Positions 27,650 to 45,900 of a stretch of DNA of 64,000 bases are shown piece by piece. How positions within the stretch are numbered: position 1 is the first letter of the stretch; each line of letters begins with the position of its first letter. Position numbers and translations under genes: made by a program. The notes under the pieces were generated by a model, which was given only the letters and a program-made list of their open reading frames with translations, was not told where the DNA came from and ran no database searches. Source of the stretch: an uncultured Actinomycetes bacterium. GTDB lineage: Bacteria; Actinomycetota; Aquicultoria; Subteraquimicrobiales; CAMTWV01. The stretch spans positions 94,199 to 158,198 of the forward strand of contig CAMTWV010000002.1 of NCBI GenBank assembly GCA_947085535.1. Reading direction: 5' to 3'.

Positions 27650-28522
27650 TCACCCGATTATGAGTTTAAGAATGTAATATGCGGCTGGCGCAGCGAACAA
27701 TAGACTATCAAATCTATCTAAAATACCACCGTGACCAGGCAGAATGAAACCTGTATCCTTAACTTTCATTTCGCGCTTAAGGCGCGATTCAGCCAGGTCG
27801 CCAACAGGCGCAGCGATGCCAAGAATAAACCCAACTAAAAATCCCCAGAGGATGCCTTTTAAAGAATGGAAGGGTTTTACCAGTAAAAAATAGAGAAGCC
27901 CTGAAATGAGCGCACTTGAAATGAGACCTGCCAATGTGCCTTCCCATGTTTTATTTGGGCTGATTGACGGCAAAAATTTCTTTTTTCCTTTCCAAATGCC
28001 ATAACCATAAGCAGCAGAATCAGAAATCCAAACGGTTATAAGAGTAATTAAGGCAAGTACAGCGCCATATTTTTCAATGCCTCTGATTAAAATGAGATGG
28101 CTAAGGAGAAAAGCCACATATAAATCGGCGTAGATGGTGATACCAAAATCAGACACGGTAAAAGTTTTTGGGGTAAATACTTCCCAGAAAAGCGAGAGAA
28201 AAATAGTTGTCAATAAAGCAGTAGCTAAACCTACGCCTCCTCCAACATAGGCGCCTGTGCAGAGAAGGATGCCGCTAAACATGCCGAAAAGTATGTTGGG
28301 ATTCATACCGCGGAAGCGGACCAGCGAATAAAATTCATCAAGACCAATTAAAACAATGGCGGTGATTAAAAGGTAAAAAGTAAAATGACTTAAAAATAAA
28401 AAGAACAGCATTAAAGGAACACCAATTACTGCTACCAGAATTCGCTGTTTTAACATTGTTTCGTTTTGCTTAAGTTCTTCAGTCAATAGCTCCAAACCGC
28501 CTTTTTCTTTGCTGAAATTCAT
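27650..28522 (-). CDS. cdsA: Phosphatidate cytidylyltransferase
   Basis: Polytopic protein with the C-terminal signature SRLKREMKVKDTGFILPGHGGILDRFDS. The start is uncertain: 28522 overlaps uppS by 44 nt, and the alternative ATG at 28454-28456 gives MLKQRIL. Confidence 0.9.
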   Translation of the reverse strand: MNFSKEKGGLELLTEELKQNETMLKQRILVAVIGVPLMLFFLFLSHFTFYLLITAIVLIGLDEFYSLVRFRGMNPNILFGMFSGILLCTGAYVGGGVGLATALLTTIFLSLFWEVFTPKTFTVSDFGITIYADLYVAFLLSHLILIRGIEKYGAVLALITLITVWISDSAAYGYGIWKGKKKFLPSISPNKTWEGTLAGLISSALISGLLYFLLVKPFHSLKGILWGFLVGFILGIAAPVGDLAESRLKREMKVKDTGFILPGHGGILDRFDSLLFAAPAAYYILKLIIG

Positions 28523-29261
28523 AAATAGCTTTAAAAAATTCTAGTCGAGAAAAATCAGGCCAGAGAGTCTCAGTTACCCAGAGTTCAGAATAAGTTGATT
28601 GCCAGGGCAAGAAATTACTTAAACGCATCTCCCCACTTGTCCTGATTAAAAGCTCAGGATCGGGCATGCCTGCTGTATAAAGGTAATTTGCCACGGTTTC
28701 GGGTGTAATTAAGTCAGGGCTTAAGTTCTTTAATAATACCTCTCTGACTATTTTTTTAACCGCCTCAGTTATTTCTTGTCTGCCCCCATAGTTTAAAGCT
28801 AAGTTTAAAACCAACCCTGTATTATTTGAAGTTGCCTTAATGCTATTTTCGAAGCATTTCTTGGTCGAATCAGGAAGTTCTTCAAGATGCCCTAATACAT
28901 TCAACCTTACATTATTTTCACTAAGTTCACCCAACTCTTCTTTAAGCGTATTTTTAAAAAGACTCATTAAGCTTGAAACTTCCTTTTTTGGTCTTTTCCA
29001 ATTTTCAGTTGAGAATGTGTAAAGCGTTAGGTATTTAATTTTAATTTCGGCTGCGGCCTTCACAATTTCACGAGTAGCTTTAACACCTGCGTGATGACCA
29101 ACAATTCGAGGCAACCCCTTTTTCTTTGCCCACCGTCCGTTTCCATCCATTATTATGGCAATGTGCCGAGGGAGCTTATCGAAATTGATTTTTTTTAAAA
29201 AAAAATCCTCACTTTCCTCTTTATGAGTTTTACGAAGACGTTCTCTATTTTTACTGGGCAC
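28479..29261 (-). CDS. uppS: Undecaprenyl diphosphate synthase
   Basis: 260 aa. IIMDGNGRWA and RTSGEMRLSNFLPWQ motifs. Confidence 0.94.
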   Translation of the reverse strand: MPSKNRERLRKTHKEESEDFFLKKINFDKLPRHIAIIMDGNGRWAKKKGLPRIVGHHAGVKATREIVKAAAEIKIKYLTLYTFSTENWKRPKKEVSSLMSLFKNTLKEELGELSENNVRLNVLGHLEELPDSTKKCFENSIKATSNNTGLVLNLALNYGGRQEITEAVKKIVREVLLKNLSPDLITPETVANYLYTAGMPDPELLIRTSGEMRLSNFLPWQSTYSELWVTETLWPDFSRLEFFKAIYEFQQRKRRFGAID

Positions 29262-29274
29262 TTTATTGGCTCAC

Positions 29275-29832
29275 CTATATTTCCATTATTTCTTTTTCTT
29301 TAGCTGCCAAAAGTTCATCAATTTCATGAATATTTTTGTCAGTCAATTTTTGAATTCTTTCTTGAGTGCGAAGTAGTTCATCCTCAGAAATTTTCTTTTC
29401 TTTTTCTTCATTTTTGAGTATGTCATTTGTGTGTCTTCTGATATTTCTAATAGCAACCCTTCCCTCTTCTGCGTATTTTTTAGCGATTTTAGCGAGTTCT
29501 TTTCTTCGTTCTTCAGTTAGTGGTGGTATTGGTAATCTAATGACATTACCGTCGTTTGTGGGAGTTATTCCTAAATCAGACTGCTGAATTGCCTTTTCAA
29601 TATTTCTTAAAATTGATTTGTCCCAGGGCTGGATGACTAATAACTGTGGTTCAGGAGATAGGATGGTTGCCACCTGGTTTACCGGCATTTTTGCTCCGTA
29701 ACAATCAACAAAAATTCTGTCGAGAAGACTGGCTGAAGCCCTACTTGTTCTTAGTCCTTTAAACTCCTCAACCATAGTTAAAACAGCTTTTTTCATATGT
29801 TCTTCAGCATCTTTAACAATAGTTTCAGTCAT
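29275..29832 (-). CDS. frr: Ribosome recycling factor
   Basis: 185 aa. Typical RRF sequence (GLRTSRASASLLD, VRLPIPPLTEERRKEL). Confidence 0.96.
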   Translation of the reverse strand: MTETIVKDAEEHMKKAVLTMVEEFKGLRTSRASASLLDRIFVDCYGAKMPVNQVATILSPEPQLLVIQPWDKSILRNIEKAIQQSDLGITPTNDGNVIRLPIPPLTEERRKELAKIAKKYAEEGRVAIRNIRRHTNDILKNEEKEKKISEDELLRTQERIQKLTDKNIHEIDELLAAKEKEIMEI

Positions 29833-29837
29833 TTTCC

Positions 29838-30566
<729 letters not shown>

Positions 30567-30570
30567 CTAA

Positions 30571-31170
30571 TTAAATAGTCACGCCTAATTCGTAACGAAC
30601 GAATCGTCTGATAACAATATTTTCGCCGATTTTTGTAGCAATTTCACCCAGGTAATCTTCAATTTTAATATCAGGATTTTTAATGTAAGGTTGGTCAAAC
30701 AAACAAACTGACTGATAAAATTTTTCTATTCTTCCTTCAGCTATTTTTTCGATAACATGAAGGGGTTTTCTTTCCTCAAACCCTTGAGCTTTGTAAATTT
30801 CAATTTCTTTTTCAATTACTTCCGGCGGCACATCGTCTCTTTTAATATAAAGGGAATTACTTGCTGCGATATGTAAAGCAATATTATGGACGAATTCTTT
30901 AAAGTCTTCGTTTCTTGCGACAAAATCTGTCTCACAGTTTACCTCAACCAGAACTCCGATTTTTCCGCCTGCGTGAACATATGAATCAATGAGTCCTTCT
31001 TTGGTGATTTTAGCGGCTCTTTTTTTAAGTTCAGCTAATCCCTTTTTTCTTAAAAGTTCAACCGCAGTTTCTATATCTCCCTTTGCTTCTTCAAGAGCTT
31101 TTTTGCAGTCCATAAATCCAGCTCCGGTGCGAACGCGTAAGTCTTTTACTAATGATGCGGATAACTCCAT
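30571..31170 (-). CDS. tsf: Elongation factor Ts
   Basis: 199 aa. LRVRTGAGFMDCKKAL UBA-like N-terminus. Confidence 0.96.
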   Translation of the reverse strand: MELSASLVKDLRVRTGAGFMDCKKALEEAKGDIETAVELLRKKGLAELKKRAAKITKEGLIDSYVHAGGKIGVLVEVNCETDFVARNEDFKEFVHNIALHIAASNSLYIKRDDVPPEVIEKEIEIYKAQGFEERKPLHVIEKIAEGRIEKFYQSVCLFDQPYIKNPDIKIEDYLGEIATKIGENIVIRRFVRYELGVTI

Positions 31171-31202
31171 CTTTGCCTCCGTAATTAATTTAACTCTGGA
31201 AT

Positions 31203-31931
31203 TTAAGCTTTTTTAACTTCGACCATATCATCTGCTTCAGGTTTGATGCGGCTTTCTTTGCCTTCAAAGCAGGCGTTGGAAATGATTTTTGTAATTAAAG
31301 CTATGGCTCTTATGGCGTCATCATTACCAGGAATCACAACATCAACTTCGTCAGGGTCACAATTTGTGTCAATAATGGCAATAACCGGAATGTTTAACCT
31401 TCGGGCTTCTTTTATAGCGATTTCTTCCTTTTTTGAATCGACCACAAAAATAGCCGCAGGAAGTTTAGTCAAATTTTTCATGCCGCCAAAGTTCTTTTCC
31501 AATTTTTCTTTTTCTTTAAGGAGTGCTTGCGCTTCTTTCTTGAGTAGTTTCTGAAGTGTTCCATTGGCTTCCATAGCCTCAAGCTCTTTTAATCGCTTAA
31601 TTCTTGATTGAATTGTCTGAAAGTTGGTTAGTGTTCCACCCAACCATCGATTGTTTACGTACGGCATTTCACAGCGAGTAGCTTCTTCTTTTATGGCATC
31701 CTGAGCTTGTTTTTTAGTTCCGATAAATAAAATGTCACCGTTGGTGCTTACTGTGCTGCGAGTAAACTCATAAGATTTTTCGATTCCGACGAGAGTTTTT
31801 TGAAGGTCAAAGATGTGAATATCATTTCGCTTGGTGAAGATGTAATTCTTCATCTTGGGATTCCATCGGCGAGTTTGATGTCCGAAATGCACCCCCGCTT
31901 CCAAAAGCTGTTTCATTGAAACTACTGACAT
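31203..31931 (-). CDS. rpsB: 30S ribosomal protein S2
   Basis: [15 protein letters not shown] motif. Start moved to the ATG at 31929-31931 ([13 protein letters not shown]), with AAAGGAG upstream. The ORF track's 21-codon extension is not S2-like. Confidence 0.96.
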
Positions 31932-32084
31932 ATAGATTTTTTCTCCTTTTCTGGTTTTTTCCCGCCACCCGCTTCGATCTTTTCTTTGCCCCACTTTTGG
32001 CGAGGACCAGAAGAAAAGTCAGCGGATGTGAGTATTTAAAACGGTCAATAGTTTAGCATAGTCAGAAATTAACATCAATTATTT

Positions 32085-32870
32085 TTATTCCAGGACAGCC
32101 TGCGATTTTATTTTGCGAAGATATGTTTTTAACCTGAAAATAGCTTTAGTGTGAAGTTGGGAAACTCTCGATTCAGTTATGCCCATGATTTCCCCGATTT
32201 CTTTTAAAGTTAAACCTTCGTAGTAATAAAGTGCAACCACAATATTTTCTTTATCAGGGAGCCGTTCTATCGCTTTCATAAGAGATTCCTTAAGCTCTAA
32301 AAATTCAAAAACTTTAGAGGGGTCACGAGCAGTCACATCTTCAATTGTGTCAATTACGGCAATTTTGTCTTCCTTGTTTGTGTCAATTGTGTAAAGGTCT
32401 TCAAGTCCGGCTACACAGGAATGGCTTAGTTGAAACATTAAATTGTAAAGCTCATCCTGACTAACATTGAGCGCTTTGGCTAATTCTTCGTCTGTGGGAA
32501 TGCGTTTTAATTTTGCCTCTAAATCATTATAAGTTTTTTCCATTTCTCTTGATTTATGTCTGAGAGAGCGAGGCACCCAGTCCATAGCCCGAAGTTCGTC
32601 GATTATTGCTCCCTTAATTCGAGTTATTGCATAGTTCTCAAATTTGATATTTCGGGATGGGTCGAATTTTTCTATAGCATCGATTAAACCCAGGATGCCA
32701 TAACTAATTAAATCGGCAATCTCAATATTTGATGGGAGTTTGGAGTAAATTTTGCCTGCTACATATTTTACTAAAGGAGCATAATAAAGAATAAGTTTAT
32801 CGCGGGTCTCATTGGATTTGGCTTTTTTATATCCATCCCAGATTTTTTGGATTTCTGGTGCGGTTTCTAT
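32085..32870 (-). CDS. FliA/SigD/WhiG-type (sigma-28) RNA polymerase sigma factor; start codon non-canonical or gene decaying
   Basis: The ORF track gives only 166 aa from the ATG at 32585 (regions 3-4). The same frame stays open upstream to 32951 and encodes a clear region 2 (KLILYYAPLVKYVAGKIY..ADLISYGILGLIDAIEKFDPSRNIKFENYAITRIKGAIIDELRAMDWVPRSLR). There is no in-frame ATG/GTG/TTG in that stretch. AGGAGG at 32880-32885 lies 9 nt upstream of ATA at 32868-32870. Confidence 0.7.
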   Translation of the reverse strand: METAPEIQKIWDGYKKAKSNETRDKLILYYAPLVKYVAGKIYSKLPSNIEIADLISYGILGLIDAIEKFDPSRNIKFENYAITRIKGAIIDELRAMDWVPRSLRHKSREMEKTYNDLEAKLKRIPTDEELAKALNVSQDELYNLMFQLSHSCVAGLEDLYTIDTNKEDKIAVIDTIEDVTARDPSKVFEFLELKESLMKAIERLPDKENIVVALYYYEGLTLKEIGEIMGITESRVSQLHTKAIFRLKTYLRKIKSQAVLE

Positions 32871-32905
32871 TTTTACTCTCCTCCTACTTGTTCTTTTAAT
32901 TAAAC

Positions 32906-33814
32906 CTAAGCACGTGGGTGAGTTTGTTGATAAATTTCTTTTAACTTTGTTTTACTTAAATGAGTATAAACTTGGGTTGAGGATAAATCAATGTGCCCTA
33001 AAAGCTCTTGAACAGACCTTAAGTCAGCTCCACGCTCAAGCAAATGGGTGGCAAAAGTGTGTCTTAAAAGGTGAGGAAAAATTTTAAGGTCACTGCCTAT
33101 TTTTTTAATGTACTTATCCAAGCAAGCTCGAATTGCTCTTTGAGTGAGTCGTTCGCCGTCTTTATTTAAAAATAAGGCTTTTTCAGTTTTTGCTCGTTCG
33201 GGGTGTTTTGAAAGAAGTTTTTTTCGTCCGTTTGCAATGTAGACTTGAATTGACTCGAGGGCTTTTCTGTTTAAAGGAAGGATTCTTTCTTTTCTTCCCT
33301 TTCCGACAACCTTAATTTCGCCTTGAGCAAAATTAACCTCGTTTATATCCATGTTTGTAAGCTCACCAACACGTATGCCTGCGCCATAAAGTGTTTCAAT
33401 CATTGCTTTGTCTCTTTGTCCTAATGGGGTGGTTTCATCAGGTGCAGATATCAATCGTTCTATGAAATCGACTTTTAAAATGCGAGGCAGTCTTTTTTCG
33501 ATTTTAGGAGAAGAAAGCATTGTAGTGGGATTTGTTTTAAGCTGGCTGGTTTTTTTAAGATAAGCGAAGAATGTTCTTAAAGCAGCTATTTTCCTAGCGA
33601 TGCTTGTTTTGCTGTACTTTAAAGTTTGAAGATAAGCAAGATATTGACGAAGAAGATTATAATTGACGTTTGAAAGCTTAATCCTGCTACGCTCGAGAAA
33701 AGTCAAAAATTGAGTTATGTCAAATTTGTATGCCTCAATGGTGTTTAAAGAGAAATTTCTCTCGGAAGATAGATACATTAAAAACTTTTTTAAAGCGTCC
33801 TTTGCTTGTGCCAT
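32906..33814 (-). CDS. xerC: Tyrosine recombinase XerC/XerD (CodV-like)
   Basis: 302 aa. N-terminal SAM-like domain, catalytic HLLRHTFATHLL and LGHIDLSSTQVYTH motifs. Confidence 0.9.
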   Translation of the reverse strand: MAQAKDALKKFLMYLSSERNFSLNTIEAYKFDITQFLTFLERSRIKLSNVNYNLLRQYLAYLQTLKYSKTSIARKIAALRTFFAYLKKTSQLKTNPTTMLSSPKIEKRLPRILKVDFIERLISAPDETTPLGQRDKAMIETLYGAGIRVGELTNMDINEVNFAQGEIKVVGKGRKERILPLNRKALESIQVYIANGRKKLLSKHPERAKTEKALFLNKDGERLTQRAIRACLDKYIKKIGSDLKIFPHLLRHTFATHLLERGADLRSVQELLGHIDLSSTQVYTHLSKTKLKEIYQQTHPRA

Positions 33815-33820
33815 TAATTT

Positions 33821-34912
33821 TTATCGTAACCTGATATAGTTTTTACCGATGTCTTGCTTAACATAACCTTTTAGTTCTAAAATCGTTAAGCAGCCAATAA
33901 CTGTTGCAATATCTAAGTTAATAAGCTGACTTATTTTATCTATGTGTACAGTTTCCCACCCAATAGTTTCAATTATCTGTTTTTCGAGATGAGAAAGCCC
34001 TTCTTCGCTTTCTTTCTTTTCCAGCTTCTTTGTCCGAAAAAGATTAAGAATACTAAGAATATCGTTAGCATTTTCAACAAGATAAGCACCTTGTTTAAGC
34101 AAATTATGAACTCCTTTACTTAAACTGCTTTTGATGTGACCTGGAACTGCCATTACATCTCGTCCTTGTTCGAGAGCAAAATCGGCTGTAATTAAGGCGC
34201 CGCTTTTTTCTGACGCCTCGATAACAATAACGCCCAGAGAAAGCCCACTAATAATTCGGTTTCGGGCAGGAAAGTTTGATTTAAACGGTGGTGTCCCTAA
34301 AGGATATTCTGAGATGAGAGCACCATGTTCTTCAATTTTTTCAAAAAGTCTTCGATTTTCGGGTGGGTAAATAATGTTTAAGCCGCAGCCAACAACTCCA
34401 ATAGTGCTGCCAACTTCCGATACTGCTCCTGTATGAGCAGCTGAATCGATTCCTCGAGCAAGACCACTTACAATTGTTATTCCGCATTTTGATAAATCAC
34501 GGGCTAATTCTTGAGCAAAAGTTTGTCCAGATAGACTGGCTCGACGGGCACCAACAATTGCCACACAGGTTGGAAAATTGGAGAGCGAATGTCCTTTAAT
34601 AAACAAAACCGAAGGAGGACTTGCTATCTCGCGAAGCAAAGGTGGATAGTCAATATCATCCATGGTTAATATTTTAATATTATAGGAAGAAAGTTTTTTA
34701 AACTCTTTATCGAGGTCAATTTTTGCCTGTTTTTCTTTAATTTTTTGAGCTGTTTTTTCAATGACAATCCCTGAATCGATAAGTTCTTTAAGTGAGACAT
34801 TCCAGATGTTTTCAGGAGTTTTAAAATGAGTGAGCAAATACCTTTCTCTGGTTGAAAATTCGCTTATTAATTTTAGTCCGAGCCAGAATTTCTTGTCTGA
34901 CAAATAGTTCAC
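33821..34912 (-). CDS. dprA: DNA processing protein DprA
   Basis: 363 aa. Rossmann-like core with GLARGIDSAAH and a C-terminal winged-helix domain. Confidence 0.92.
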   Translation of the reverse strand: MNYLSDKKFWLGLKLISEFSTRERYLLTHFKTPENIWNVSLKELIDSGIVIEKTAQKIKEKQAKIDLDKEFKKLSSYNIKILTMDDIDYPPLLREIASPPSVLFIKGHSLSNFPTCVAIVGARRASLSGQTFAQELARDLSKCGITIVSGLARGIDSAAHTGAVSEVGSTIGVVGCGLNIIYPPENRRLFEKIEEHGALISEYPLGTPPFKSNFPARNRIISGLSLGVIVIEASEKSGALITADFALEQGRDVMAVPGHIKSSLSKGVHNLLKQGAYLVENANDILSILNLFRTKKLEKKESEEGLSHLEKQIIETIGWETVHIDKISQLINLDIATVIGCLTILELKGYVKQDIGKNYIRLR

Positions 34913-34928
34913 CCTACGGGTCGTAGAC

Positions 34929-36449
34929 CTATTTTAAACTCGTTCTATACTGAATAGCTTCAGCAATATGTCCTAACTCGATATTTTCTGAATTGACTAA
35001 ATCCGCAATGGTTCTTGCCACTTTTAAAATGCGGTCGTAAGCCCTCGCGCTTAAGGCAAACTTATCAACAGCATTTTCAAGAAGCGATTTAGCCGATGGC
35101 GAAAGAGAACAAAATTCCTTAATCTCTTTTGCTCTCATTTGCGCATTCAAAACAATATTTCTTTCATAGAATCTCTCTTGCTGTTTTATTCTTGCCTTCT
35201 GGATTCTTTCTTTTATTGAACTTGATGGCTCACCGCTAAGATTTCCAGAGAGCTCTTCTTTGGTGAGTCGAGGCACCTCAACACAGATATCCATTCTGTC
35301 CATAAGTGGTCCAGAAATCTTATTTCTGTATTGCTGAACTTTTATTGGCGTGCAAACACATTCTTTTAATCGGTCGCCTGAGTGGCCACAAGGACAAGGG
35401 TTCATTGCTGCGATGAGGACAAATTTACTTGGATAAGTAAGTGCTGTAGAAGCTCTTGAAATGGTTACATAACCATCTTCTAAAGGTTGTCTGAGAACTT
35501 GAAGAACACTTTTGCTAAATTCAGGAAATTCGTCTAAAAATAAAACACCGTTATGACTGAGCGAAATTTCACCCGGTTTAGGAAAGTGACCACCGCCCAC
35601 AAGACCAGCATAAGAAATTGTGTGATGAGGGGATCTGAATGGTCGGGTTAAAATTAGAGATGTATTGGAAGCCAGAATTCCAGCAACGCTGTAAACTTTA
35701 GTTGTTTCTATTGCTTCGTTTAAAGTCAAATCAGGAAGTATTGTTGGAATTCGGCGAGCAAGCATTGTTTTACCCGAGCCAGGAGGTCCAATCATTAAGA
35801 CATTGTGGCCACCTGCGGTGGCAACTTCGAGTGCCCTTTTAGCATGTTCCTGCCCTTTAATATCAGAGAAATCGATACCAAAATCAGTATTCGAGGTAAA
35901 AATACTCTTTAAATCAGTTTTTTGAGGTTCAATGATTATTTTATCATTTAAAAAATCAACTACTTCTCTTAGTGTTTTTACTGGAATGACTTTAACGCCA
36001 TCTACTATTGCGGCTTCTCTTGCATTATCAAAAGGGATAATGATTCCCTCTTTTTTCTCATTTTTGGCGCAAATAGCTAAAGAAATAGCCCCGTTAACCC
36101 TTCTTATTTCACCATTTAGAGAAAGCTCGCCAACAATTAAGTATTTTTTAAGGTTATGGTGAGAAATAACTTTAAATGCAGCCAGTGAAGCTAAGGCAAT
36201 AGGTAAATCAAAAGAAGGTCCTTCTTTTTTAATGTCAGCCGGAGCTAAATTTATTGTGATACGCTTTAAGGGAAACTCAAACTCGGAATTACGAATGCTG
36301 GACCTGACTCTTTCTCTTGATTCCTGAACGACTGTATCAGGAAGTCCAACAATGTTAAAAGCAGGTAAGCCCGTTGAAATATCAGCCTCAACCTCTACTT
36401 TTATAGCTTCCAGTCCGTAAAGTGTAGCGCTTTCTAATTTAGCAATCAA
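34929..36449 (-). CDS. comM: Mg-chelatase-like AAA+ protein YifB/ComM
   Basis: 506 aa. Lon-like N-terminus, Walker A GPPGSGKTMLA, Walker B LFLDEFPEF, and an inserted CPCG zinc motif. Confidence 0.9.
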   Translation of the reverse strand: MIAKLESATLYGLEAIKVEVEADISTGLPAFNIVGLPDTVVQESRERVRSSIRNSEFEFPLKRITINLAPADIKKEGPSFDLPIALASLAAFKVISHHNLKKYLIVGELSLNGEIRRVNGAISLAICAKNEKKEGIIIPFDNAREAAIVDGVKVIPVKTLREVVDFLNDKIIIEPQKTDLKSIFTSNTDFGIDFSDIKGQEHAKRALEVATAGGHNVLMIGPPGSGKTMLARRIPTILPDLTLNEAIETTKVYSVAGILASNTSLILTRPFRSPHHTISYAGLVGGGHFPKPGEISLSHNGVLFLDEFPEFSKSVLQVLRQPLEDGYVTISRASTALTYPSKFVLIAAMNPCPCGHSGDRLKECVCTPIKVQQYRNKISGPLMDRMDICVEVPRLTKEELSGNLSGEPSSSIKERIQKARIKQQERFYERNIVLNAQMRAKEIKEFCSLSPSAKSLLENAVDKFALSARAYDRILKVARTIADLVNSENIELGHIAEAIQYRTSLK

Positions 36450-36459
36450 ATTGCTCCTC

Positions 36460-36801
36460 CTAAAAAGCGTTTTCTATGTGAATAATCTCTGTTCTATCTT
36501 CATTGACAAGAATTCCTATAACGTCAAATCTGAATGATTCCGCTTGAGGCTTGTGGAAAGCAATAAAAGAATCAGCAAGTTTTTTTAATCTTTTCTGTTT
36601 TGAAATATTGACAGCCTCAAATGGTTCGCCATATTTTTTATTGGACCTTGTTTTTACTTCAACAAAGACAAGAGTCTTTTTATTAAAAGCAATTATATCA
36701 ATTTCACCAAATTTTAAGCGATAATTTCTTTCAAAAATTTTAAAACCTTTTTTGAGAAGAAGCTGGCAGGCGAGGTCTTCGCCTTGAGATTTGAGTGGCA
36801 T
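36460..36801 (-). CDS. yraN: YraN-family (UPF0102) endonuclease-like protein
   Basis: 113 aa. GEIDIIA...VFVEVKTR pattern, located next to rnhB. Confidence 0.85.
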   Translation of the reverse strand: MPLKSQGEDLACQLLLKKGFKIFERNYRLKFGEIDIIAFNKKTLVFVEVKTRSNKKYGEPFEAVNISKQKRLKKLADSFIAFHKPQAESFRFDVIGILVNEDRTEIIHIENAF

Positions 36802-36804
36802 AGC

Positions 36805-37449
36805 TTAACCTTCGCATATTAATTTTTTAATGGGAGAAAAGTTTTTCCGATGGATTTTTGACGGACCCCATCGGGCAAGTGCTTCCTGGTGATATTTTGT
36901 TCCGTATCCTTTGTTGAAAGAGAACCCAAAGCTGGGAAACTCTTTATCGAGTTTATCCATAATTCTATCTCGTGTAACCTTGCACACTATTGAGGCAGCA
37001 GCAATGCACGCACTTATGGAGTCACCTTTAATTAAAGCTTTATTGGGAATTTCCAAATTGGGCAGAAGATAGCCGTCAGAAAGAACAAAATCGGGCTTAA
37101 CTGAAAGTTTTTTAACCGCTTCTTTGAGACATTCAAGATTTGTTTTTTGCAGTCCGAGAGCTTCGATTTTTTTTACGTCAAAAATAGCGACGCTCCAAAA
37201 GCAAGAATCAGTAATTGTTTTAAATAGTTTTTCTCGAGTCTTAGGAGTTATTTGCTTGCAATCTTTTAATCCAGAAATAAAAACATTTTGAGGAATGATA
37301 ACTGCGGCAGCAACCAGCGGTCCAGCCCAGGCACCCCTTCCTGATTCATCAACACCAGCAATTAGCTGGTATTTCTTACTGCGTAAATCATTTTCAATTT
37401 GACACAAATTTTTAAAATCTTCAATTTCGAGGTTATCCTTGGCTTTCAT
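36805..37449 (-). CDS. rnhB: Ribonuclease HII
   Basis: 214 aa. GVDESGRGAWAGP and DSK-type motifs. Confidence 0.93.
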   Translation of the reverse strand: MKAKDNLEIEDFKNLCQIENDLRSKKYQLIAGVDESGRGAWAGPLVAAAVIIPQNVFISGLKDCKQITPKTREKLFKTITDSCFWSVAIFDVKKIEALGLQKTNLECLKEAVKKLSVKPDFVLSDGYLLPNLEIPNKALIKGDSISACIAAASIVCKVTRDRIMDKLDKEFPSFGFSFNKGYGTKYHQEALARWGPSKIHRKNFSPIKKLICEG

Positions 37450-42971: not shown

Positions 42972-45900
42972 ACTGCTTCACGCTCAGCGTTAAGTTTTTG
43001 TGAAATCAGTTTGGAAACACCATCAGCCTGCATGGTTGTGCCATAAATTGTGTCAGCCATTTCCATGGTTCGTTGCTGATGGGTGATGATTAGAAACTGA
43101 GTTTTGTCCTTTAACCTTAATAAAAGATTAATGAAGCGCTGAAGATTAGCTTCATCCAGAGACGCTTCAACTTCATCAAGGATGTAAAATGGGCTAGGCC
43201 TTGTAAAGTATAGGGCAAACAAGAAAGCTAAAGCAGCGAGTGCGGTTTCGCCCCCTGACAAAAGAGAAAGTTTCTGAAGTTTTTTCCCTTGCGGCTGAAT
43301 CTGTATCTCAATTCCTGACTCAAGAAGATTATCTTCTTTTTCTAAAACAATCTCAGCTTTTCCACCGGGAAATAAATAAGAAAAAACGGATTGGAAATTC
43401 TTATTAACTTCAACAAGAGTTTGGGCAAATTTTTCTTTTATTTTTTCATCTATTGCTCTGGTGACTTTTTCTAAAGCTTTTTTGCTATGCGATAAGTCAT
43501 TTATTTGTTCGTTCAAGAATTCATAACGCTCATCAAGCTCTTTAAATTCCTCAAGCGCCATGGGATTAACAGGACCCAGACTGCTTATTTTGCGCTTAAT
43601 TTCGCCAATTTTAGTCTGGCACTCAGAGTAAGAAATTTTTAGAGGATAATTTTCAAGTGCTTTCTCGAGCGGCGTATCGTATTCATCGACAATTTTTTCA
43701 ACAGCTGAGGTGATTTGTCCTTCCAACTGCACCCGACTTAATTCTTTTAAGCGTAAATCTTCTTGAAGTGTCTCTTTTTTTGCCTCGCATCCCTCTTTTT
43801 CTTCTTTAAGTTTTTTGAAAGCCCGCCTGATTTCTTCAAAGAATGTTTCATCCCCTGAAGCAATATCAGTCAGTTTCGCCGCCCACCAGTTTCCTTTTTC
43901 GTATAGGGCGGTAAAGAGCTCATAAGTGGGTTGTATGCGACCGACTAAAACTTCAAGCGCTTGAGAAATTTTGTGTTCGGATTCAGTTAAACTTTCAATT
44001 TCTCTTAAATCCTGATTTAATTTTTCTTTTTGCTGGTTTAGATGATTTTTTTGATTGACCAGCGATTTTAAATTAACTTCATTTTCCATTATTTTATGGC
44101 TGAGAGTAAGTTCTTCTTTATGGTTTGCATTTAATTCAACTTTGAAAACCTGGAGAGCTTCCTTTGCTTCATCTATTTTTGCTACAATATTTTTACTTTC
44201 TTTTGAGAAATTTTCTTTTGTGGTTTTGTCAATCTTTATTTCTTCACCAAGTTTATTTGACTCATTTTCAGCTTTTACTAAGTTATCTTTAAGCTTAATT
44301 AAGTCAGCCTCAAAATTGTGTATAGTCACTTTAAGAATTTCAATTTGAGAAGACTCATTGTTTAGCTTTTGTTGATATGAAGCTAAATTTTCTTTTGTTT
44401 GAGCGAGCCTTTCTTTATCTTTTTTAATTTCTGCCTCTAAAGTTGAAATCCCATGAGTTAATTTATTTTTTTCATCTTCAAGTGCTGTAAGCTCTCTTTT
44501 TCTATTTAAGATTTCCGAGGAATTGTTGCCAGCGATATTCCCGTAGCTTATTTTAAATGGGCAAAACACTTTGCCATTAGTTGTAACAAAAGTTAAATCA
44601 GAGCTTGTTTTATCGCTTAAACAACTGTCTTCGTTGATCAAATAAATATCTCTGGTTAGATACTCAATCGCCGATTTAAATTTTTCGTTTATTTCAATAA
44701 CGTCGCTTAATTTTTGTCCATTTGATTTGTGAGTATCAGGCATAGGAAGATTATTTATTGGAAGAAAAGAGATACCGCCCTGAATCGAGTTTCTTCGAAT
44801 AAGCCCAAGAGCATTTAAAGCCGTTTCTTTTGTGTCGCAAAGCACTGTGAATAAGTCAGGACCTAAAGCTGCCTCCAAAGCTTGTTCAAATTTAGGGGAA
44901 ATTTTAATTAAATCAATAAGGCAACCTGCTATGCCTTGAGGTTTGTTTTCTTTTTTTAATAACCAAGCTACTGCCTCAGGATAACCGGTTAAGTTGTTGT
45001 TCATGCCTTGAAGAGCATTGCTTTTTGATTTGCATTCAGCTGATTTTATTTTTAAGTCAGATAACTTCACCAGATGATTGTCTAATTTAAGTTGAACCTT
45101 ATTTAGTTCCTCTTCTAATTGTTTTATTTCTTTCCGGGAGTTTTTAATGTTACCCTCAAACCCTTCTCTTTCTTTGCTTTTAGCTTCAATTAACTTATTT
45201 AGCTCACTTATTTTTGTGAGATTAGAATTTCTTTCCGAGTCGATGAGTTTTAATTTTTCTTCGTTAAGGGTAATTTTTCTGTCAATATCAGATAACTTGT
45301 GCTGAATTTCAGAAAGATAAGCAGTGTTTTTATTAAGCGTCTCTTCCAAATTTTCAATCGTTTCTTCCAGATTAGAGCTTTTCTTAGTTTGATTTTCTTG
45401 AGAATTTTTAAGTTCATTTAAAGTATTTTCAATATGGCTTATTTCTTCCTCTGTTTTTTTCTTTCTATCATTTGTTTCTGTTATCTCTTTGTTCTTTTGG
45501 GTCTTTTGTTTTTCAAGCCGGTAAATTTCCTGCCGAATCTCGCTCATTTTTTCAATTAAGTGTTTACCTTTTTCCTCTAAAAGCAACATACTGCTATGAA
45601 GTCTTTCCTGAATAGCAGCAAGATGTCTTCTTTGTTCACTTAAATTTCCGGTAAAAAGTCTTTTCTCCTCTAAAGAGATCTGAAACTCTTCAATTTGGGT
45701 TTCTTTTTGTTTAAATTCATTTTTAAAAGTTTCAAAGCTTTCTTTTAACTGCTTTTCCTCTAAATTAAGCTTTTCCCATCTCTTTTGCATCTCTTTTAAT
45801 TCGAAAATTGTCTGACTTAGCTCTAACGTTTTTAACTCGTCGGTCAGCTTCTGGTATTCTTGAGCTTTTTCCGCCTGAGATTTTATGGGTCTAAGTTGAC

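Follow-up and report, generated by a model that had tools for sequence, protein, structure and literature searches.

A putative AUA start codon behind a perfect Shine–Dalgarno sequence in a sigma-28 gene of a deep-branching actinobacterium

The 64,000-nucleotide (nt) stretch analysed here (contig CAMTWV010000002.1, positions 94,199 to 158,198 of the forward strand; hereafter the window) comes from an uncultured member of Candidatus (Ca.) Aquicultoria and has a GC content of ∼38%; the source names of WhiG and RecG homologues put it near Ca. Subteraquimicrobiales and Oleimmundimicrobium. On its minus strand, between a xerC-like recombinase gene and rpsB, lies a gene for a sigma factor of the FliA/WhiG (sigma-28) family, in which no canonical start codon precedes conserved region 2. 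The features of this locus, from which we argue that translation probably begins at an AUA codon behind a perfect Shine–Dalgarno (SD) sequence, are listed below in window coordinates.

32085–32870, minus strand: full-length FliA/WhiG-family sigma-28 coding sequence, 261 codons from ATA plus the stop TAA at 32087–32085 (translation, NCBIfam, Pfam and orthologue alignment).
32868–32870, minus strand: proposed AUA initiation codon, the sole in-frame near-cognate behind the SD sequence; the same in five other assemblies of the species (L001–L005).
32880–32885, minus strand: perfect SD sequence AGGAGG, 9 nt 5′ of the ATA and kept in six of six assemblies.
32879–32871, minus strand: the 9-nt spacer between AGGAGG and ATA, AGAGTAAAA.
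32583–32585, minus strand: first canonical in-frame ATG (Met96), located after region 2; the spurious start of a 166-amino-acid (aa) gene call.
32906–32908, minus strand: stop TAG that closes the xerC-like gene upstream, 35 nt before the ATA and out of frame with the sigma gene.
32952–32954, minus strand: in-frame upstream stop TAA that bounds the sigma frame (from translation).

A sequence-only reading of this stretch had described an ATG-initiated open reading frame (ORF) of 166 aa that starts MDWVPRSLR in the middle of a sigma factor, a frame that stays open for 122 further codons up to a stop at 32952–32954 with no ATG, GTG or TTG, a perfect AGGAGG 9 nt before an ATA, and a 261-aa product with an intact sigma-28 region 2. 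All of these observations are borne out. The short ORF (32085–32585, minus strand) is present in the ORF list, translation shows the frame open to the TAA, the AGGAGG and ATA lie where they were placed, and a codon-by-codon scan of the 122 codons preceding ATG 32585 finds not one canonical start. Up to and including the ATA, the only near-cognates in the frame are ATT (32900–32898) and ATA (32870–32868). Read along the minus strand, gtttaattaaaagaacaagtAGGAGGagagtaaaaATAgaaacc... comes after the xerC TAG. The segment AGGAGGaGA agrees with the canonical AGGAGGUGA at eight of nine positions, a consensus that may not equal the host's own 16S 3′ end. In the predicted fold of the start region (−45 to +45) the SD sequence and start codon are mostly unpaired; the fold itself is not significant (z = −1.8), so we use it only to show that the two elements are not sequestered.

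Scans found no terminator-like sites between xerC, the sigma gene and rpsB, and no promoter or terminator signal around the sigma gene that exceeds shuffled controls. Rfam searches at gathering thresholds give no match within the window, and therefore no known leader or riboswitch near the sigma gene; no tRNA genes were found in the window. Given the in-frame frequency of canonical start triplets in ten long window genes (3.8%), the chance that 95 coding codons lack ATG, GTG and TTG is ∼0.026. The notion that start-free leaders, here and in the recG gene described below, are themselves a selected feature (P ∼0.02–0.03 each) was dropped for ascertainment bias, because recG was found by screening for start-free leaders.

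The 261-aa product has the three-region architecture of a complete sigma factor, provided that translation begins at or near the ATA. Pfam matches sigma-70 region 2 at residues 26–98 (61 bits), region 3 at 109–146 (34 bits) and region 4 at 200–248 (65 bits). The product reaches 268.1 bits on the NCBIfam family TIGR02479 (FliA_WhiG; cut-off 189.6) and passes the WhiG equivalog NF004935 marginally (346.3 bits against 343). A protein initiated at the ATA would begin (M)ETAPEIQKIW, which puts a conserved tryptophan at residue 11, compared with 12–14 in orthologues. The sigma factor is probably of the flagellar type, because the basal actinobacterial classes, Ca. Aquicultoria included, mostly carry flagellar clusters (PMC10746217). 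Three matches to the sigma-28 promoter pattern T[A/C]AA-N16-GCCGA occur in the window, at 45513 (plus strand), 54742 (plus strand) and 47219 (minus strand), and by their coordinates all lie inside long ORFs; target promoters were thus not identified in the window.

As the sole canonical ORF, and the one that gene callers report, the 166-aa frame from ATG 32585 might be all that is made from this locus; the product would hold regions 3–4 without region 2 and could possibly act as an anti-sigma decoy. No SD sequence precedes that ATG, however, and its methionine is an internal residue at a conserved position (DWVPRS is preceded by L or M in all homologues). The 95 codons upstream of it are also conserved as protein, with change that is mostly synonymous. 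We regard exclusive production of the short protein as highly improbable.

To place the candidate start among the other start sites of the window, we listed every GGAGG with its downstream codon and next examined 65 genes. Across the full window, AGGAGG shows no enrichment (30 observed, 22.8 expected). Eleven of the 30 sites lie at gene 5′ ends, and nine of these precede ATG or TTG by 5–9 nt; the other two belong to the sigma gene (ATA, 9 nt) and to recG (ATT, 11 nt). Spacing from GGAGG to a canonical start ranges from 4 to 9 nt. The 9 nt of the sigma gene falls inside this range and, with the nine canonical sites at 5–9 nt, puts its SD sequence within the normal SD-to-start geometry of this genome.

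The same survey bears on a second way of reading the leader, in which initiation occurs at another non-canonical site, for example at ATT 32900–32898 by termination–reinitiation. This codon is in frame and 5 nt past the xerC stop, and would give a product of 271 aa that carries the basic extension KRTSRRRVK, the AGGAGG then being nothing but a pair of arginine codons. Some homologues are indeed 270–275 aa long, and in the NCBIfam WhiG alignment ∼12 profile positions lie ahead of the one matched to residue 6. Against this, there is no SD sequence 5′ of the ATT, whereas a perfect AGGAGG serves as an SD sequence (5–9 nt) at every other gene boundary that bears one. The extension would also move the conserved tryptophan to residue 21, outside the 12–14 of all close orthologues, and in the orthologue of the sister species (L006) an in-frame stop sits 7 codons 5′ of the ATG, which rules out such an extension there. 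A start at this ATT is very unlikely.

Five further assemblies of the same species (L001–L005: runs SRR27458589, ERR3478695, ERR3478709 and ERR3478701, and the metagenome-assembled genome (MAG) GCA_964480305.1) carry an identical AGGAGGAGAGTAAAAATAGAAACC (AGGAGG-N9-ATA). The six assemblies amount to three haplotypes, which are diverged by up to 2.3% in the sigma gene: the window differs from the ERR assemblies at 4 of 783 positions, and L001 and L002, which have the same sigma gene sequence, both differ from it at 18 of 783. Because the six assemblies, which stem from three or more projects, have the same bases at this site, a sequencing or assembly error at the ATA is ruled out. We also considered a XerC–sigma fusion produced by −1 frameshifting close to the 3′ end of xerC. 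Judged from the coordinates, such a shift would enter the sigma frame past its upstream stop at 32952, but the last 15 xerC codons contain no slippery heptamer of the form X_XXY_YYZ, and the sigma homologues are stand-alone proteins of 258–275 aa, which leaves the fusion without precedent. Both of these explanations are rejected, their probability being close to nil.

Public gene predictions for this protein are truncated, as the sequence-only reading had expected of standard gene callers. One (P0012, 166 aa, 99% identical) is missing region 2, and another (P0001, 225 aa, 95% identical) has region 2 clipped. The longer call is explained by a synonymous GTA>GTG change at Val36 in L001 (gene at 2893–3678) and L002: the caller took the new internal GTG for the start, yielding a protein that begins MAGKIYSK.... 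In this way the point of truncation varies from strain to strain.

In the sister species the orthologue (L006, protein P0003, 78% identical) starts with an ATG that is at most one codon from the position of the ATA, and its product begins MTEEKSEIEKIW. This ATG has a poor SD sequence, with AAAGAG immediately 5′. More distant orthologues (61–66% identical) start with GTG in L087, where it follows GGAGG, and in L089, and with TTG in L088; for the orthologue in L007 (56% identical) the start is ambiguous, either GTG or ATG. The ATG of the sister species and the GTG and TTG of remoter orthologues indicate that ATA is the derived state. The sequence-only reading had held that a canonical start in orthologues would count against its proposal and point to a recent mutation or a sequencing error here; half of this objection holds, since the comparison indicates a mutation but not a sequencing error. 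On the sequences compared, the ATA is a derived change that is fixed in the species.

The orthologues span the same species (at least 95% identity) and the sister species (78%), with none between 78 and 95% identity. A scan of reference genomes did not contain the species itself and gave as best match a 56% identical contig labelled 'uncultured Actinomycetota'. An exact-pattern scan of JGI metagenomes with the start codon left free found no relative, and a protein-guided scan of the same metagenomes gave no match above 56%. Weak starts in three of the five orthologues (GTG, TTG and GTG) suggest a general selection for low translation, or dosage, of this sigma factor. By this comparison the ATA is a change that arose in a gene family already leaning to weak starts in this clade.

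No stops or indels interrupt the sigma frame in any of the three haplotypes. The window and L001 differ by 8 synonymous and 10 non-synonymous changes in the gene, a ratio of non-synonymous to synonymous rates (dN/dS) of 0.335, and the same comparison gives 0.29 for dprA, 0.31 for xerC, 0.38 for tsf and 0.16 for rpsB. The non-synonymous share lies below the neutral 0.785 (binomial P = 0.025, or P = 0.003 after pooling with the differences between the window and L003, 1 non-synonymous and 3 synonymous, whose independence from the L001 set is unchecked) and does not differ from that of the pooled neighbours (Fisher P = 0.6). Within the start-less 95 codons there are 3 synonymous changes and 1 non-synonymous change between the window and L001. 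Compared with L006, identity is 81% over the first 95 residues and 75% over the remainder, with neighbouring genes at 66–84%. On these small counts, nothing points to relaxation; the gene appears free of decay, under a constraint that is not distinguishable from that on its neighbours.

These data bear directly on the possibility that the gene is a recent pseudogene, silenced by an ATG>ATA change in the ancestor of the species too recently for decay to have set in. The sequence-only reading had left the choice between an AUA start and an early-stage pseudogene open. The low divergence between strains means that decay might not show yet; the C-terminal part of the gene has a dN/dS of 0.48, on 14 changes; and flagella have been lost repeatedly in Actinomycetota (PMC10746217), so that the sigma factor could be dispensable. 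However, the reduced non-synonymous share is on a par with that of essential neighbours, tsf among them, the haplotypes are intact, the ATA is fixed in six of six assemblies, and the best conserved part of the protein is the N-terminal one, which would go untranslated in a pseudogene. A further argument comes from elsewhere in the window.

When all stop-to-stop frames were screened for long start-free leaders, the only real genes among those flagged were the sigma gene, with 122 codons, and a frame at 58725–61082, with 106 codons, which encodes the helicase RecG. The screen detects genes that start at AUA, AUC or AUU (AUH) when at least 30 codons lack a canonical start, so that two is a lower bound. 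The features of the second gene are as follows.

58725–61076, minus strand: RecG helicase gene from an in-frame ATT, 783 codons; no canonical start before the conserved N-terminal domain.
61074–61076, minus strand: candidate AUU start of recG, which follows the stop of a degV-like gene at a distance of 6 nt; kept in L092, L093 and L094.
61088–61093, minus strand: perfect AGGAGG, 11 nt 5′ of the ATT; kept in three other assemblies.
61085–61083, minus strand: stop of the degV-like gene upstream of recG (from reading the sequence).

The recG start region reads cgAGGAGGggTAAtcgaaaATTtcc and is identical in three other assemblies. Counted from the ATT, 104 codons are free of canonical starts and encode the conserved N-terminal domain; the first methionine (60764) lies inside a conserved LKFVGPGISKQLNRMGIFVVEDLLYHFPHRY motif. 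The leader holds LKFVGPGISKQLNRMGI... and the motif VEKNLNAENRAVIGGF, the latter aligning with the LEKxLGxxNxSVIGGF motif of RecG relatives of ∼750–810 aa, in which the Gly-Gly pair is invariant or nearly so. Gene callers give RecG as 679 aa in all three strains. Peptides predicted for the longer protein are SETK... and AVIGGFDVYLSSINESFK. Strain differences within the leader comprise 3 synonymous and 7 non-synonymous codons, compared with 28 synonymous and 11 non-synonymous in the rest of the gene. Because all of the leader changes are confined to its first 52 codons, the extreme N-terminus of RecG appears to be loosely constrained, as it is among homologues.

To read the sigma gene as a pseudogene, recG would have to be a second, independent start loss with the same arrangement of SD sequence and AUH codon among ∼63 mostly housekeeping genes, and we consider two such pseudogenes much less likely than an organism capable of AUH initiation. 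A silenced sigma gene is accordingly improbable in our view. Initiation at the AUA is preferred over it because the site is the same in six assemblies, selection on the gene resembles that on its neighbours, the N-terminus is conserved and recG offers a parallel.

Four points nevertheless weigh against initiation at the AUA, and the first three of them also count in favour of a recent pseudogene. (i) The ATA is evolutionarily shallow, with an ATG at or next to the same position in a sister species that is 78% identical. (ii) Among 142 sigma-28 homologue loci, found by tblastn against all fetched loci followed by an upstream walk from each match, a canonical start before region 2 is missing only in the five loci of this species; two other loci that seemed start-less are contig-end truncations and were set aside. 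(iii) With only 18–22 changes between strains, the selection tests have low power. (iv) In Escherichia coli reporters, AUA, AUC, AUU and CUG initiate at 1–2% of the AUG level (10.1101/063800).

With these points taken into account, we consider it likely that the sigma gene is translated by genuine AUA initiation that is driven by the strong SD sequence and attenuates synthesis of the sigma factor. With the perfect and accessible AGGAGG to place it, the 30S subunit would have the near-cognate AUA in its P site, and the initiator tRNA would read AUA 32870–32868 as formylmethionine to give the intact 261-aa sigma-28. Ribosomes finishing xerC may feed this start as well, given the 35-nt gap without a terminator. 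A near-cognate start is less efficient than AUG, so synthesis of the sigma factor is likely to be reduced, possibly in a condition-sensitive manner. Initiation at the AUA, lowered expression and sensitivity to initiation factor 3 (IF3) are all three things that we infer from the sequence.

Whether the two genes reflect something broader is more doubtful. The window holds two AUH-start candidates among ∼63 genes, compared with two confirmed genes in all of E. coli, which hints that this lineage may tolerate AUH starts more than model bacteria do. The census covers the window, as a look-up of its terminal genes gave short contigs only. It is possible, though we think it rather unlikely, that the species, and perhaps Ca. 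Aquicultoria more widely, has a relaxed start-codon stringency in which AUA and AUU behind a perfect AGGAGG are regular starts at a frequency of the order of per cent. If real, such relaxation could trace back to IF3, to the initiator tRNA or to the 16S 3′ end.

An AUH start behind a strong SD sequence is a known type of mechanism, to which the sigma gene adds an instance and no new principle. The closest precedents are in Staphylococcus aureus, where retapamulin-assisted ribosome profiling (Ribo-RET) identified AUA starts with extended SD sequences in infC, ccpN and citZ, at ∼10–30% of the output of AUG reporters, and an AUU start behind an extended SD sequence in cvfC1 (PMC13009471). For the sigma gene, the sequence-only reading had supposed very low, IF3-sensitive translation. 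Like the sigma gene, ccpN and citZ combine an AUA start with a strong or extended SD sequence, were overlooked in annotation and are proposed to have attenuated translation; ccpN also encodes a transcription regulator. They differ in that their starts are experimental, whereas the AUA of the sigma gene is read from sequence, and in that they belong to Bacillota and encode different proteins, whereas the sigma gene belongs to a deep-branching actinobacterium. The ccpN AUA is conserved from S. aureus to Bacillus subtilis and the citZ AUA is limited to one strain lineage (PMC13009471). In this respect the sigma gene resembles citZ, its AUA being confined to a narrow lineage, and departs from ccpN, whose AUA is shared across genera whereas the sister species of the sigma gene has ATG.

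In E. coli, the only confirmed AUH starts are those of infC and pcnB, both AUU (10.1101/063800). There, as proposed for the sigma factor, a near-cognate AUH codon limits a regulatory or dosage-sensitive protein, with discrimination by IF3 presumed. Those two starts are AUU and experimentally proven, however, whereas the sigma gene has a sequence-based AUA; moreover, the infC codon is the sensor in the IF3 autoregulatory loop, and no such loop is implied for the sigma factor. In vitro, an mRNA with AUA in an optimised context can equal one with AUG, while starts other than AUG respond to nutrient state and to guanosine tetraphosphate (ppGpp) (PMC5499595). Within Actinomycetota, AUU initiation on leadered mycobacterial mRNAs (Shell et al. 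2015, as cited in PMC13096801) provides a precedent for AUH starts with an SD leader, but the codon is AUU rather than AUA and the hosts are high-GC Actinomycetes. The WhiG protein of Streptomyces, and actinobacterial FliA/WhiG proteins in general, belong to the same family as the sigma product, and a non-canonical start is not described for them; WhiG is known to be controlled at the post-translational level, by way of RsiG and cyclic di-GMP (PMC7005675, PMC8325347, PMC12871210). We found no report in the literature of a sigma factor with an AUA start codon.

The surroundings of the gene are stable. The order comM-like, dprA, xerC, sigma-28, rpsB, tsf, pyrH, frr and uppS (28479–37449, minus strand) is the same in the window, in the other loci of the species and in L006. 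The neighbourhood from comM to tsf recurs in the closest relatives, and we take it to match the whiG–rpsB locus of Streptomyces, presumably present in Mycobacterium without whiG; this favours positional orthology of the sigma gene with whiG. Between the sigma stop and the rpsB ATG at 31931 lies an untranslated spacer of ∼150 nt (31932–32084, minus strand), with AGGAG 11 nt before the ATG, and assemblies differ in the called rpsB start, with products of 242, 263 or 279 aa. The spacer matches no Rfam family at the gathering score and may be an uncharacterised S2 leader.

Two further observations concern other sequences. In protein P0002 (410 aa, from an ENA contig of 2277 bp), a single ORF appears to contain a truncated WhiG-like copy (regions 2–3) followed by a second, complete one; duplication in tandem or a chimeric assembly, in an unrelated high-GC organism, could account for this. 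In the same species as the window, a locus ∼2.9 kb past its high-coordinate end (L179, 380–2380) encodes a GAF-GAF-HD (HD-GYP-like) protein of 666 aa; a DUF1858 protein also lies just beyond the window. The HD-type domain could provide a link to cyclic-nucleotide signalling, which controls WhiG in Streptomyces.

For annotation, the consequence is that every public prediction found for this sigma protein (P0001 and P0012) has region 2 missing or clipped, and that RecG calls in this species lose 104 residues of a conserved N-terminal domain. Callers restricted to ATG, GTG and TTG cannot repair either truncation, and conclusions drawn from such MAG annotations about motility regulation or DNA repair capacity would be wrong. 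For the sigma family, the weak starts of the orthologues fit selection for low sigma-factor dosage. If initiation at the AUA is genuine, the design of a weak start combined with a strong SD sequence, shown for regulators in Bacillota, would extend to deep-branching Actinomycetota. Should start-codon stringency be relaxed throughout the lineage, one class of its genes would be consistently cut short in standard annotation.

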